The notes: generated by a model from the sequence alone, not told the origin. A stretch of 64,000 nt of DNA from Burkholderiales bacterium (GCA_021414305.1 JAIOOS010000001.1:10694-74693); one strand, 5' to 3'; positions 21,209 through 27,895 are shown, counted from the first letter of the stretch. Numbers and translations: made by a program.

Positions 21209-22090
21209 ATGCCGGCCGGGCTGGAGTGGGAACGCGACGGCGCGGCCTGGCCGAACCGCGAGGCGAGCCGCTTCGTCCCCGCCGGCGGCCTGCGCTGGCA
21301 CGTGCAGACGCGCGGCCAGGGACCGGCCGTCCTGCTGCTGCACGGCACCGGCGCCTCCTCCCATTCCTGGCGTGACCTGCTGCCGCTGCTCGGCGAGCGC
21401 TTCACCGTGATCGCGCCCGACCTGCCCGGACACGGCTTCACCTCGAAGGCCGTTGGCGACGGCATGTCGCTGCCCGGCATGGGCAGGCTCGTCGCCCAGC
21501 TGTTGAAGGTGCTCGGTGTCGAGCCGGAGTTCGTGGTCGGCCACTCCGCTGGCGCCGCGATCGCGGCCCGCATGAGCCTCGACGGTCGGCTCGCGCCGCG
21601 GGCCCTGGTCAGCCTCAACGGCGCCTTCCTGCCGTTCGCCGGCGCGCTGCGCGTGTTCTCGCCGGTGGCGAAGTTTCTCGCCTCGACTTCGCTTGCCGCT
21701 CGCCTCGCCGCGGTTCGGGCGCGCGATCCGCGGGCGGTCGGCCGCCTGCTGGCGTCGACCGGGTCGACGCTCGACGCGCGCGGCACCGCGCTCTACGCGC
21801 AGCTCGTGCAGAGCGCCGGTCACGTCGCCGGTGCCCTGGCGATGATGGCGAGCTGGGACCTCGACGGGCTGCCGCGCGAGCTCCGACGGCTCTCCGCGCT
21901 GGTGCTGCTGCTCGTGGGCGAGAACGACCTGACCGTGTCGCCGCAGCAGGCGTCGCGCGTGGCGGCGCTGCTGCCGCACGCCGAAGTCGAACGCCTGCCG
22001 GGCCTCGGCCACCTGGCGCACGAGGAACAGCCGCAGCTCGTGGCCGAGCGGATCTGCGCGTTCCTCGGCCGGGCCTCAGCCGCCGCCTGA
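21209..22090 (+). CDS. bchO: Alpha/beta hydrolase BchO
   Basis: WPNREASRFV, LLHGTGAS.HSW, DLPGHGF, GHSAG nucleophile elbow, GHLAHEE; follows bchD. Confidence 0.92.
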   Translation: MPAGLEWERDGAAWPNREASRFVPAGGLRWHVQTRGQGPAVLLLHGTGASSHSWRDLLPLLGERFTVIAPDLPGHGFTSKAVGDGMSLPGMGRLVAQLLKVLGVEPEFVVGHSAGAAIAARMSLDGRLAPRALVSLNGAFLPFAGALRVFSPVAKFLASTSLAARLAAVRARDPRAVGRLLASTGSTLDARGTALYAQLVQSAGHVAGALAMMASWDLDGLPRELRRLSALVLLLVGENDLTVSPQQASRVAALLPHAEVERLPGLGHLAHEEQPQLVAERICAFLGRASAAA

Positions 22091-23020
22091 AGCTTCGATC
22101 AAGGGCGCGTCGTGGGCGCGCAGGTAGGCCTCGCCGTTTTCGAGCATCGCGTAGCGGAACGCCTCGGCGGCGGGCGAGAGCACCTTGGAGAGCAGGTGCA
22201 CCAGGTTCCAGGTCTTGACGATCGGCGTGCCCTCGACCTCCAGGCGCGCGATCAGGCCGTTGCGCAATTCCAGACCCAGGGTGTGCAGCGAGAGGAAGCT
22301 CAGGCCCAGGCCCGCCATCACCGCCTGCTTGATCGTCTCGTTGCTCGACATCTCCATGGCGATGCGTGGCCGGAAGCCCTGCGCCTCGAAGAACTCTTCC
22401 ATCGCCTTGCGCGTGCCCGAGCCGGGCTCGCGGACGATGAAGGGCAGGTCGGCGAGGAGCGCCACGGGCAGCGATTCGCGGCCGAGCAGGCGATGGCCGA
22501 CCGGCGCGACAAAGACGAGAGGATGGGCGGCGAACGGCTCGCTGCGGGTCGCCATTTCCTTGGGTGGCCGGCCCATCACCGCCAGGTCGATCTCGCCTTC
22601 GTGCAGCAGCGCCAGCAGCTGCTCGCGGTTGCCGCTCACCTGCAGGCGAACCTCGACGCTCGGATGTTCTTCGCAGAACTGCGCCAGCAGGCGCGGCACG
22701 AAGTACTTGGCGGTGCTGACGAGGCCGACGTCGAGGCGGCCGCCCTCGACCCGGCGCAGGCGCGCCATCGCGTCCTCGGCGTCCTTCAGCGTCGCCAGCA
22801 GCCGCTTGGCATAGATCAGGAAGTACTCGCCGGTCGTCGTCAGCGAGATGGCCCGGCCGCGCCGGTCGAAGAGCGGCAGGCCGAGCGCGGATTCGAGCTC
22901 CTTGACCTGCATCGTCACCGCGGGAGGGGTCAGGTGCAGGGCCTCGGCCGCACGGACGAAGCTGAGCCGCCGGGCCACCTCCGAGAAGACCCGCAGTTGG
23001 CGGAACGTGACGTTCTTCAT
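22076..23020 (-). CDS. cbbR: LysR-family regulator of the cbb operon
   Basis: MKNVTFRQLRVF, SFVRAAEALHLTPPAVTMQVK, STAKYFVPRLL, REPGSGTR, SNETIKQAV; divergent from cbbL. Confidence 0.93.
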   Translation of the reverse strand: MKNVTFRQLRVFSEVARRLSFVRAAEALHLTPPAVTMQVKELESALGLPLFDRRGRAISLTTTGEYFLIYAKRLLATLKDAEDAMARLRRVEGGRLDVGLVSTAKYFVPRLLAQFCEEHPSVEVRLQVSGNREQLLALLHEGEIDLAVMGRPPKEMATRSEPFAAHPLVFVAPVGHRLLGRESLPVALLADLPFIVREPGSGTRKAMEEFFEAQGFRPRIAMEMSSNETIKQAVMAGLGLSFLSLHTLGLELRNGLIARLEVEGTPIVKTWNLVHLLSKVLSPAAEAFRYAMLENGEAYLRAHDAPLIEASGGG

Positions 23021-23033
23021 TAAGCGTTCCTGA
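23021..23033. promoter_or_regulatory. Putative CbbR (LysR) box in the cbbR-cbbL intergenic region
   Basis: TAA-GCGTTCC-TGA (TNA-N7-TNA, T-N11-A) immediately upstream of the cbbR start. Confidence 0.45.
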
Positions 23034-23118
23034 ATCGAAGCGCAAGCAAGTTTGAATTTACCTCGAGAAAGGCGACTTCTACATTCGACCGCTCCTGACC
23101 CAGCCGGAGCCCATCGCA

Positions 23119-25959: not shown

Positions 25960-26996
25960 CCATTCGCCTGGCGGAGTGGCTCGACGACCAGCCGGCCGCG
26001 CTCGGCGACGTGATCTCCGCGCTGGCGCTCGCCTGCCAGGAAATATCGACCGCGATCTCGCTCGGGCCGCTCGCGGGCCTGCACGGCAAGGGCGAGGGCC
26101 ACAACACGCACGGCGAGGCGCAGCACAAGCTCGATGTCTTCGCCGATCGCTGCATCGCCGGCACGCTGGCGGTCTCGCACCACGTGGCCGGCTGGGCGAG
26201 CGAGGAGCAGGAGCTGCCCACGCTCTCGCCGAGCCATGGCGAGCAGGGCGAGTACCTGGTGGTGTTCGACCCGCTCGACGGCTCCTCGAACATCGACGCC
26301 AACATCAGCGTCGGCACGATCTTCTCGGTGCTGAAGCATCCGTTTCGCGGCACGCCGCCGGGCGAGGCGGGGTTCCTGCAACCCGGGCGGCGCCAGGTGG
26401 CCGCGGGCTATGCGGTGTACGGGCCGGCCACCCTGCTGGTGCTTTCGTGCGGTGACGGCGTCGCCGCGTTCACGCTCGATCGGCGCGAGCGCGTCTGGCA
26501 GCTCACGAGCCCGGAGCTGCGCATTTCCGAGCAGACGCGCGAGTTCGCGATCAACGCCTCGAACCAGCGCTTCTGGGAAAAGCCGGTGCAGCGCTATGTC
26601 GCCGAATGCCTGGCCGGCACCGAGGGTCCGCGCGCAGCCGACTTCAACATGCGCTGGGTGGCCAGCCTGGTCGCCGAGGTGCACCGGATCTTCAGCCGCG
26701 GCGGTGTCTTCATGTACCCGCGCGACAACAAGGAGCCGAGGAAGGCCGGGCGGCTGCGCCTGATGTACGAGGCGGCGCCGATGGCCTTTCTGGTCGAGCA
26801 GGCGGGCGGCGCGGCCGTCACCGGCACCCAGGCCCTGCTCGACATCGTGCCCGACACGCTGCACCAGAAGGTGCCCGTGATCCTCGGCTCCAAGGGCGAG
26901 GTCGAGCGGATCGTCCGCTACCACGCCGACCCGCACGAGAACACGCACTGGCCGCTGTTCAAGGAGCGGTCGCTCTTCGTTCCGCCCGCCGGCTGA
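25956..26996 (+). CDS. cbbF: Fructose-1,6-bisphosphatase class 1
   Basis: [51 protein letters not shown]. Confidence 0.95.
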
Positions 26997-27019
26997 AGGC
27001 GCGCTCCGGAGAAAGCCGC

Positions 27020-27895
27020 ATGTCGAAGAAGCATCCCATCATCGCCGTCACCGGCTCGAGCGGGGCCGGCACGACGACGGTCAAGCGCGTGTTCGAGAAC
27101 ATCTTCCGCCGCGAAGGCATCTCCGCCGCGGTGATCGAGGGCGACGCGTTCCATCGCTATCCGCGCAAGGAGATGAAGGAGCTCATCGCCGCCGCCGACC
27201 GCGACGGCCGGCCGATGAGCCACTTCGGCCCGGAGGCGAACGAGTGGGGCGTGCTCGAGCAGCAGTTCCGCACCTACGGCGAGACCGGGCGCTGCGAGTC
27301 GCGCCTGTACCTGCACAGCGACGAGGAGGCGGCGCCGTGGAAGCAGCCGCCCGGCACCTTCACGCCCTGGCAGCAGACGCGGGCCGACACCGACCTGCTG
27401 TTCTACGAAGGCCTGCACGGCTGCGTGAAGACGGGCGATGTCGACCTGGTCCGCCACGTCGACCTGAAGCTCGGCGTGGTGCCGATCATCAACCTCGAAT
27501 GGATCCAGAAGATCCACCGCGACACCCGCGACCGCGGCTACTCCAAGGAAGGCGTGACCGACACCATCCTGCGCCGGATGCACGACTACGTGCACTACAT
27601 CTGCCCGCAGTTCGGCGAGACCGACATCAACTTCCAGCGCGTGCCGATCGTCGACACCTCCGATCCGTTCATCGCCCGCGACATTCCCACCGCGGGGGAG
27701 AGCGTCGTCGTCGTCCGCTTCCGCAACCCGCGCGGCATCGACTTCTCGTACCTGCTGGCGATGATCGACCAGTCGTACATGTCGCGCGCCAACACCATCG
27801 TCGTGCCCGGCGCGCGCATGGACCTGGCGATGCAGCTGATCCTCACCCCGCTGATCCTTCGCCTGATGGACATTCGCCGGGCGCAGCACCACTAG
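27020..27895 (+). CDS. cbbP: Phosphoribulokinase (proteobacterial type)
   Basis: MSKKHPIIAVTGSSGAGTT, EGDAFHRY, LLFYEGLHG, INLEWIQKIHRD, INFQRVP.VDTS. Confidence 0.97.
   Translation: MSKKHPIIAVTGSSGAGTTTVKRVFENIFRREGISAAVIEGDAFHRYPRKEMKELIAAADRDGRPMSHFGPEANEWGVLEQQFRTYGETGRCESRLYLHSDEEAAPWKQPPGTFTPWQQTRADTDLLFYEGLHGCVKTGDVDLVRHVDLKLGVVPIINLEWIQKIHRDTRDRGYSKEGVTDTILRRMHDYVHYICPQFGETDINFQRVPIVDTSDPFIARDIPTAGESVVVVRFRNPRGIDFSYLLAMIDQSYMSRANTIVVPGARMDLAMQLILTPLILRLMDIRRAQHH

Follow-up and report, generated by a model that had tools for sequence, protein, structure and literature searches.

A reduced Calvin cycle gene cassette nested between bchO and crtI within the photosynthesis gene cluster in a Burkholderiales lineage

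Introduction

Calvin-Benson-Bassham (CBB) cycle genes that are physically linked to a photosynthesis gene cluster (PGC) have been described in a few bacteria. Such a linkage was found in a 64,000-nucleotide stretch of DNA from a Burkholderiales bacterium (GCA_021414305.1, JAIOOS010000001.1:10694-74693; the whole stretch is hereafter the window), in which a cassette of cbbR, cbbL, cbbS, cbbX, fbp and prk lies between bchO and crtI. An initial annotation of this DNA held that cbb operons usually lie outside of PGCs. This is true as a rule, but PGC-linked Calvin genes have been published (PMC10569730; PMC12700997). In the window, as in those cases, cbbLS, cbbX and the genes for fructose-1,6-bisphosphatase (FBPase) and phosphoribulokinase (PRK) are contiguous with a PGC; their position and the gene content are unlike the published examples.

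Directly downstream of PGC1, the photosynthetic Bradyrhizobium supergroup carries genes for class-1 FBPase and PRK together with tkt, fba, cbbLS and cbbX (Microb Genom 2023, PMC10569730). In Rhodopseudomonas, cbbLS-cbbX flank the PGC (PMC10569730). The window shares with both genera the physical linkage of FBPase, PRK, cbbLS and cbbX to a proteobacterial PGC. Unlike the window, these are Alphaproteobacteria whose Calvin genes are outside of the PGC, downstream of it, and include tkt and fba, whereas the window cassette is nested between bchO and crtI and contains neither. The PGC of Bradyrhizobium and of Rhodopseudomonas holds a bacteriophytochrome-PpsR pair, as does that of the window.

Acaudatibacter (Caulobacterales) carries CBB genes inside the PGC of freshwater metagenome-assembled genomes (MAGs), which was taken as photoautotrophic potential (Nat Commun 2025, PMC12700997). 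A complete CBB cycle was reported, the PGC also contained cbbY and light-harvesting complex 2 (LH2) genes, and the carbon-fixation genes were outside the syntenic core (PMC12700997). Acaudatibacter resembles the window in having red-type cbbLS and cbbX inside the PGC, but belongs to another class, and a bchO/cbbR junction is not described there (PMC12700997). An active Calvin cycle has also been reported in an aerobe that produces bacteriochlorophyll, whose PGC and rbcLS are apart (bioRxiv 10.1101/2021.04.29.441244). No description of a betaproteobacterial bchO/cbbR linkage, or of a PGC-cbb linkage in Burkholderiales, was found in the literature searched, an absence that is not proof of novelty.

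The canonical PGC segment reads bchI-bchD-bchO-crtI-crtB with a PpsR/CrtJ operator at crtI, and the same order is found on both sides of the window insert. Unlike the canonical segment, the window has 5.8 kb of cbb genes interposed, with bchO overlapping cbbR tail to tail. A divergent cbbR, the gene order cbbL-S-X-fbp-prk and a red-type CbbL with CbbX are likewise found in the cbb operons of Burkholderiales that are facultative autotrophs (Cupriavidus necator type, form IC; for example the Ideonella MAG L001 and Derxia lacustris L006), whose proteins are 76-84% (PRK) and 74-92% (CbbL) identical to those of the window. In contrast to these operons, which lie among ordinary chromosomal genes, the window operon ends after prk (no tkt, cbbZ, pgk or fba) and has bchO and crtI as its neighbours.

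Results

A codon log-odds gene caller combined with family scans gave a gene map of the window. In total, 59 genes were called in DNA of 70% GC, and three of these had no family match. The cassette was nested between bchO and crtI of the PGC as the initial annotation had claimed. The identities proposed there for bchO, cbbLSX-fbp-prk and crtI were confirmed in place, most of them above curated cut-offs, and that of cbbR, which scored below the cut-off of its best family, is likely (Table 1). The 15-bp overlap of bchO and cbbR and the 60-bp spacer between prk and the ATG of crtI were both exact. The length of the bchO product agreed with gene calls in relatives.

[quoted passage not shown] The best solved relatives of CbbL were all red-type: 25hn, the C. 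necator enzyme 1bxn (890 bits), the Galdieria enzyme 1bwv and the R. sphaeroides enzyme 5nv3 (856 bits). Green-type enzymes scored at most 683 bits, about 200 bits or more below the red-type. In alignment with the solved enzymes the active-site KDDE carbamylation block of CbbL was intact. An NCBIfam equivalog was not found for cbbS. The cbbX product of relatives was likewise 301 aa, and prk was on the same strand as fbp, 23 bp downstream. No protein identical to the exact window PRK sequence was on record.

The regulator gene was called cbbR because its best match was the CbbR family NF045990 and because it is placed divergently beside cbbL. Its product was 100% identical to P0121, and close homologues carry the JGI name “low CO2-responsive transcriptional regulator”. 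The reduced gene content put forward earlier, namely the CBB-specific genes plus FBPase, was borne out: of the 59 called genes, none was identified in family scans as tkt, gap, pgk, fba, rpe or cbbZ.

The 80 closest JGI metagenome loci to crtI were surveyed with all window proteins mapped onto them, and 59 of these were informative (at least 1 kb upstream of crtI). The gene upstream of crtI was bchO on the same strand within 500 bp, the canonical bchIDO-crtIB order, in 30 loci. The same-strand bchO was separated from crtI by another insert in four loci, bchO was inverted in four loci, and ppsR was upstream of crtI in four loci. None of the 59 loci had prk in this position, in agreement with the claimed departure from the usual PGC make-up. 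A cbb cassette within 10 kb of crtI was found in only one of them (L117), a distant contig with an otherwise arranged PGC that carries the whole cassette with a 4-bp cbbR/bchO overlap. Separately, a bphP-ppsR pair was directly upstream of crtI in L117, L107, L118 and L129.

The 80 closest PRK loci from species-representative genomes showed the usual Burkholderiales order: cbbR diverging from cbbLSX-fbp-prk, with no crt genes after. The genes following prk were tkt-cbbZ-pgk-fba in the Ideonella MAG, tkt and, further on, fba in Derxia lacustris, and cbbZ alone in a Methylibium MAG (L002). Crt genes did not follow prk in any of these 80. Outside the clade, the nearest PRK relatives, at 76-84% identity, came from Ideonella, Methylibium and Aquabacterium MAGs and from Derxia. 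Because the PRK relatives carry a longer operon, the window cassette corresponds to the 5' part of the normal operon of the order, cut after prk. A bch gene adjoined prk in only one locus, L020 (bchD). This locus, from the unrelated MAG REEB290 (JAGWPY010000190.1, positions 3876-6402), shows a different cbb-bch contact, in which prk of cbbSX-fbp-prk converges directly on a bchD that is 54% identical.

Using CbbR as the query, the contigs encoding its closest matches were inspected. All of them had HiPIP-bchI-bchD-bchO converging on cbbR, with cbbL beyond, wherever the contig extended (HiPIP, high-potential iron-sulfur protein). In L161 (GCA_031360885.1; CbbR 97% identical) prk was followed by crtI-crtB, and the left flank was the same as in the window. 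In a JGI contig (3300067032; CbbR 86%) and L166 (GCA_038204045.1; CbbR 83%) prk was followed by cbbZ-crtI-crtB. In L163/L171 (GCA_025350505.1; CbbR 88%) prk was followed by cbbZ and then a ccm cytochrome-maturation cluster, and in L169 (GCA_038326825.1; CbbR 78%) by the ccm cluster. The remaining contigs were L162 (GCA_039933535.1, labelled Caldimonas sp.; CbbR 93%) and L168 (ENA ERZ12295321; CbbR 82%), both stopping in cbbL; L167 (ENA ERZ26273096; CbbR 84%), stopping in cbbX; and the short contigs L164 (GCA_043763145.1) and L165 (Logan SRR23617188), both with CbbR 88%. The lineage was assigned from the Caldimonas sp. labels on a few relatives and from the nearest PRK genomes. The bchO/cbbR overlap was the same 15 bp in L161-L168 and 47 bp in L169. 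In all relatives examined, HiPIP came first both in the PGC and in the conserved block.

The initial annotation had held that its reading would be refuted if related genomes commonly had the arrangement. Within the lineage it is common, with about ten further assemblies having the bchO/cbbR junction and three having prk(-cbbZ)-crtI (L161, L166 and JGI 3300067032); among the 59 crtI loci, prk occupied this position in none. In L166 (5987-7027), fbp was called as two open reading frames (187 and 96 aa), a possible frameshift, pseudogene or MAG sequencing error.

The ccm clusters after prk or cbbZ, in L163 (1-4428)/L171 and L169 (1-5115), were on the opposite strand. In L171 (JANXXS010000316.1, 2851-3408) the ccm cluster was followed by a crtI remnant comprising residues 1-187, 83% identical to the window, and beyond the remnant by a 53-aa TspO fragment and phosphate-transport genes. 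HiPIP-bchIDO, the cbb cassette, cbbZ and the adjoining ccm cluster are intact in GCA_025350505.1. It looks as though the crt side was formerly present in this genome and has since been deleted, with partial loss of the PGC.

Other genes were found at the same junction in other lineages. In L106 (3456-9890), a more distant metagenome contig, ccmA-I alone was between bchO and crtI, with no cbb genes. The inserts were DUF3422 plus a hydrolase in L139 and an alpha/beta hydrolase in L087. The bchO-crtI junction seems to be a recurrent insertion point. In the distant L107 (350-3225), a CbbR-like regulator, 65% identical, converges on bchO with a 6-bp gap; its divergent partner is a HAD-family phosphatase only, with puhE beyond. 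L107 looks like a cassette that has lost cbbLSX-fbp-prk.

Identities dropped in parallel for the bch and cbb proteins: from L161 to L169, BchD fell from 91 to 60% and CbbR from 97 to 78%. Orthologues of HiPIP were 75-99%, those of BchI 86-98% and those of CbbS 85-98% identical to the window. The dN/dS ratio was 0.03-0.47 for every gene, and the dS ranges of the bch and cbb halves overlapped in each genome comparison. Purifying selection acts on the block HiPIP-bchIDO/cbbR-cbbLSX-fbp-prk, which is inherited as one. To the left of HiPIP almost every genome had different genes, among them ars plus dioxygenase genes, KaiBC with a histidine kinase, folK-pcnB-hda, and IS110 plus isc. The chromosomal context of the cluster is fluid, since the left flanks differ among genomes. 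In L162 (5861-11299), KaiC, KaiB and a large PAS histidine-kinase/response-regulator gene adjoin HiPIP-bchIDO, which hints at circadian-type control.

In the cbbR-cbbL region, an inverted repeat and the AAGTTTGAATTTACC block were common to eight relatives (alignment A2), and the repeat would fit a LysR-type operator. In the prk-crtI spacer, TGTCAGAATGATCTGACA is a perfect TGT-N12-ACA palindrome of PpsR/CrtJ type, about 34 bp before the crtI start. The promoter-like site that it overlaps was the only sigma-70-like site found in 21-31 kb. As the initial annotation had noted, no terminator-like site was present in the 60-bp spacer. A block consisting of GTTGTCAGA-N6-TGACAC followed by TAGnAT aligned among the window, L161, L166 (after cbbZ) and L117 (after ppsR). 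In 48 of 72 relatives, among them canonical clusters where crtI follows bchO, a PpsR-type box lay no more than about 70 bp from crtI. Since crtI has this operator and promoter block ahead of it whether the preceding gene is cbbZ, ppsR or bchO, crtIB appears to keep its own control.

Altogether, eight TGT-N12-ACA palindromes occurred in the window versus 2.8 expected. Three were in intergenic regions of the PGC: before HiPIP-bchI, between crtD and crtE, and before crtI. A match inside fbp (26713) was taken as chance, given the 2.8 matches expected per window.

The assembly was checked against Logan contigs of X1 (SRR15633504, a freshwater metagenome), which were assembled independently of the window. 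X1 was the one run holding every sampled word of the region. A 16-kb contig spanned 17000-23772 (bchI to 5' cbbL) and a 9-kb contig spanned 27488-32000 (3' prk to crtC), both with zero mismatches and a depth of 52. Short pieces between the two long contigs had depths of 51-57, and the graph broke only within conserved cbbL, cbbX and prk sequence. Both cassette ends are tied to PGC genes, as these contigs span both junctions. In another run, X2 (a freshwater-sediment metagenome), short contigs were 95-99% alike in bchI, cbbR, cbbL, prk and crtI (17000-32000 compared). These contigs, which are too short to reach the junctions, indicate by their likeness that a close relative lives elsewhere.

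The PGC extends from HiPIP (about 17.9 kb) to past 63 kb and comprises contiguous bch, crt, puf and puh genes with ppsR (Table 1). The start of crtB overlaps the end of crtI, and the crtB product of relatives is 367 aa with a Pfam SQS_PSY match. Heme oxygenase and bphP-ppsR inside the PGC imply red/far-red light control of the cluster. An arsenic operon, arsR-arsI-arsC-MIP, was at 13276-15266, 3 kb left of the PGC. Derxia lacustris (L006 17752-19233) has ars genes 50-61% identical to these about 7 kb past its cbb operon, possibly by coincidence. Two MmgE/PrpD paralogues, a family-III CoA-transferase and an acyl-CoA dehydrogenase were grouped at 3316-8430 and resemble an organic-acid catabolic set, unrelated to the cbb finding.

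Table 1. Features of the window, with positions counted from its first nucleotide.
Feature	Position	Strand	Basis or description
Ordinary chromosomal genes	1-17.8 kb		hemN, MmgE/PrpD x2, CoA-transferase, acyl-CoA dehydrogenase, arsR-arsI-arsC-MIP, small dioxygenases
TGT-N12-ACA palindrome (PpsR/CrtJ-type box)	17855..17872	.	Intergenic 17776-17943, ~70 bp upstream of HiPIP-bchIDO
PGC start	17944-22090		HiPIP, bchI, bchD, bchO
HiPIP, 103 aa	17944..18255	+	Pfam PF01355 on identical product (L170) and orthologues L161-L169
bchI, Mg-chelatase subunit I	18274..19293	+	Position and Mg_chelatase/AAA Pfam matches
bchD, Mg-chelatase subunit D	19330..21201	+	NF009943, 731 bits vs cut-off 571
bchO, PGC alpha/beta hydrolase, 293 aa	21209..22090	+	TIGR03056, 295 bits vs cut-off 173
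bchO/cbbR convergent 3'-end overlap, 15 bp	22076..22090	.	bchO TGA 22088-22090; cbbR stop is reverse complement of 22076-22078
cbb cassette	22076-27895		cbbR (-), then cbbL, cbbS, cbbX, fbp, prk (+)
cbbR, LysR-type regulator, 314 aa	22076..23020	-	Divergent from adjoining cbbL; best family CbbR NF045990
cbbR-cbbL control region, 98 bp	23021..23118	.	ATTAAG-N5-CTGAAT inverted repeat (LysR T-N11-A type) abutting cbbR start; conserved AAGTTTGAATTTACC block
cbbL, RuBisCO large subunit, red-type form I (IC-like), 495 aa, GTG start	23119..24606	+	NF003252, 775 bits vs cut-off 438
cbbS, RuBisCO small subunit, 145 aa	24620..25057	+	Pfam RuBisCO_small on 145-aa orthologues
cbbX, AAA+ red-type RuBisCO activase, 301 aa	25054..25959	+	TIGR02880, 507 bits vs cut-off 459
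fbp (cbbF), class-1 FBPase, 346 aa	25956..26996	+	NF006779, 464 bits vs cut-off 349
prk (cbbP), PRK, 291 aa	27020..27895	+	NF011997, 490 bits vs cut-off 362
prk-crtI spacer, 60 bp	27896..27955	+	Palindrome TGTCAGAATGATCTGACA 27922-27939 overlapping promoter-like TTGTCA-17-TAGGAT 27921-27949
Carotenoid genes	27956-33208		crtI, crtB (+); crtC, crtD (-)
crtI, phytoene desaturase, 513 aa	27956..29497	+	TIGR02734, 624 bits vs cut-off 238
crtB, phytoene synthase	29466..30569	+	Best family NF045921, 374 bits, under cut-off 500
crtE to pufC	33374-44364		crtE, O-methyltransferase at crtF position, bchCXYZ, pufBALMC
PGC segment with bphP-ppsR	44505-48736		Heme oxygenase (+), bphP and ppsR (-)
puh and bch genes	48848-62902	-	puhE-acsF-puhCBA, PUCC-family lhaA, bchM-L-H-B-N-F

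Discussion

The arrangement probably arose when an intact, CbbR-controlled cbb operon of reduced content lodged at the bchO-crtI junction in an ancestor of the lineage and was then inherited with the bch block, with crtIB controlled separately. The operon would have been trimmed to the steps that a heterotroph lacks: CbbLS, CbbX, FBPase and PRK. The ancestor would have belonged to the Burkholderiales lineage whose relatives are named as Caldimonas sp. MAGs, and HiPIP-bchI-bchD-bchO/cbbR-cbbLSX-fbp-prk would have been passed on together since then. One old insertion at the canonical junction is the simplest history, followed by retention or loss of cbbZ, entry of the ccm cluster, and splitting or deletion of the PGC.

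In operation, CbbR on the inverted repeat of the 98-bp region would activate cbbLSX-fbp-prk upon carbon and redox metabolites. The remaining Calvin steps (tkt, fba, gap, pgk, tpi, rpe and rpi) would come from central-metabolism genes elsewhere in the genome. The crtIB genes would have come with their own PpsR-repressed promoter, upstream of which the cassette was inserted. Light harvesting and CO2 fixation are thus physically linked and yet would run on two separate regulatory circuits, with read-through from prk to crtI at most an add-on.

Several points weigh against this account. The regulator scored 292 bits against a cut-off of 450 for NF045990, the only CbbR equivalog model and one tuned to Rhodobacter. 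The binding of CbbR to the inverted repeat and of PpsR to the palindrome is suggested by motif and position only. No terminator was detected after prk, so read-through into crtIB could occur. No RNA run held more than 9% of the junction words, and the metatranscriptome of the same sample (X24), which is tiny, gave no signal. The view covers 64 kb, and any genes for the shared enzymes (tkt, rpe and others), for an electron donor system and for BchE would lie beyond it.

A possible but doubtful alternative is neutral rearrangement, in which the linkage is kept only because the overlapping ends of bchO and cbbR and the tight spacers leave no gene-sparing breakpoint. The junction has taken unrelated inserts elsewhere (ccm in L106, DUF3422 plus hydrolase in L139 and hydrolase in L087), and the cbbR/bchO pair persists in L107 even without cbbLSX-fbp-prk, as neutral retention would allow. 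It fits less well that PGC-linked cbb genes arose separately in Bradyrhizobium/Rhodopseudomonas (PMC10569730) and in Acaudatibacter (PMC12700997), which suggests selection for the linkage, and that the cassette is under purifying selection.

Transcriptional coupling was proposed in the initial annotation: the cbb operon and crtIB would form one CbbR-driven transcript, so that carotenoid synthesis tracks the control of CO2 fixation. The two genes at the junction are on the same strand with no terminator-like site in the 60 bp between them, and the spacer palindrome would give only a short hairpin with no T-run. This proposal was weakened by the complete PpsR-type operator that overlaps the promoter-like site in the spacer, a conserved arrangement that leaves read-through possible yet not needed. 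The same block precedes crtI after cbbZ (L166), ppsR (L117) and bchO (canonical clusters). Read-through coupling is not conserved, because cbbZ or the whole opposite-strand ccm cluster lies between prk and crtI in relatives. It is unlikely that the two gene sets form one coupled unit.

A more speculative proposal, judged quite unlikely, makes the conserved tail-to-tail overlap of bchO and cbbR, which measures 15 bp in nine assemblies and recurs at other lengths among lineages whose PGCs are otherwise rearranged, itself a regulatory device. PpsR-controlled transcription of HiPIP-bchIDO from the box at 17855 would run antisense into cbbR and set pigment synthesis against the level of the CO2-fixation activator. 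The 11-gene block would then be a selected, co-inherited “light plus CO2” module that outlives PGC rearrangement and partial loss (GCA_025350505.1).

There is still less to be said for the idea that a foreign, mobile cbb island entered the PGC recently by horizontal transfer, or that the PGC and cbb genes together act as a mobile island for photoautotrophy. Almost every relative has different genes left of HiPIP, and the GC content of the cbb stretch is 0.65-0.70 versus 0.71-0.78 in its neighbours, as might be expected of an island. Against this, no tRNA was found in a scan of the window, and its gene set contained no integrase or insertion sequence in family scans. The one transferable unit suggested in the initial annotation is likewise hypothetical. 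In a first composition screen the third-position GC of cbbL was 0.96, the highest among confident genes, and on this basis its codon usage is native. The parallel divergence of cbb and bch genes within the clade makes the insertion old. Other Burkholderiales hold the nearest cbb relatives, and no PLSDB plasmid carried bchO and cbbR together when the bchO-cbbR-cbbL stretch was the query. An assembly chimera joining the cbb operon of one organism to the PGC of another at conserved sequence can be dismissed as far as sequence data allow: the window is of freshwater metagenome origin and the X1 graph breaks in cbbL, cbbX and prk imply that related sequences coexist in the sample, but single X1 contigs carry bchI-bchD-bchO-cbbR-cbbL(5') and prk(3')-crtI-crtB-crtC at equal depth, and at least nine further assemblies, each from a different sample than the window, have these junctions.

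RuBisCO with its activase, PRK and FBPase are the only Calvin functions absent from ordinary central metabolism. The short cassette is sufficient in principle, because the remaining functions belong to that metabolism. The FBPase of cbb operons commonly doubles as a sedoheptulose-bisphosphatase, and that of the cassette probably does so by analogy. The reaction centre, light-harvesting complex 1 (LH1), PufC and HiPIP would give ATP via cyclic electron flow. Judging from gene content, the role of the cassette may be either light-driven CO2 assimilation (photomixotrophy or photoautotrophy) or, in photoheterotrophy, an electron-sink function of the Calvin cycle, as is known for purple non-sulfur bacteria.

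The oxygen-dependent cyclase AcsF was present at 49645-50706, as the initial annotation had stated, but AcsF alone is no proof of an aerobic anoxygenic phototroph. Rubrivivax gelatinosus has both AcsF and BchE. No bchE was found in the 64-kb window, and an oxygen-independent HemN was encoded at 633-2039. On these genes the organism may be either an aerobic anoxygenic phototroph or a facultative purple bacterium. Aerobic anoxygenic phototrophs are classically defined in genetic terms by having no RuBisCO, and the window, with its RuBisCO and PRK genes, does not fit that definition.

Overall, the linkage is real and has good support; it is shared by a lineage, not unique, and its kind has already been described. 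It stands out for the precise place where the cassette was inserted, for the truncation of its gene set, and for the tail-to-tail overlap with bchO, which is conserved. Nothing is overturned, as phototrophs with AcsF and RuBisCO and PGC-linked cbb genes are already in the literature. The window adds the case of an uncultured freshwater betaproteobacterium to the few bacteria in which bacteriochlorophyll phototrophy and Calvin genes are physically joined. With its relatives, the question of why such linkage evolves can be put to a natural series: the full cassette, the cassette with cbbZ, the cassette with a ccm cluster, the regulator only, and a partly deleted PGC. The block, kept in several genera-level relatives, probably marks a lineage in which a type-II reaction centre goes together with CO2 fixation, or at any rate with use of the Calvin cycle, and this bears on the contribution of freshwater “photoheterotrophs” to primary production.

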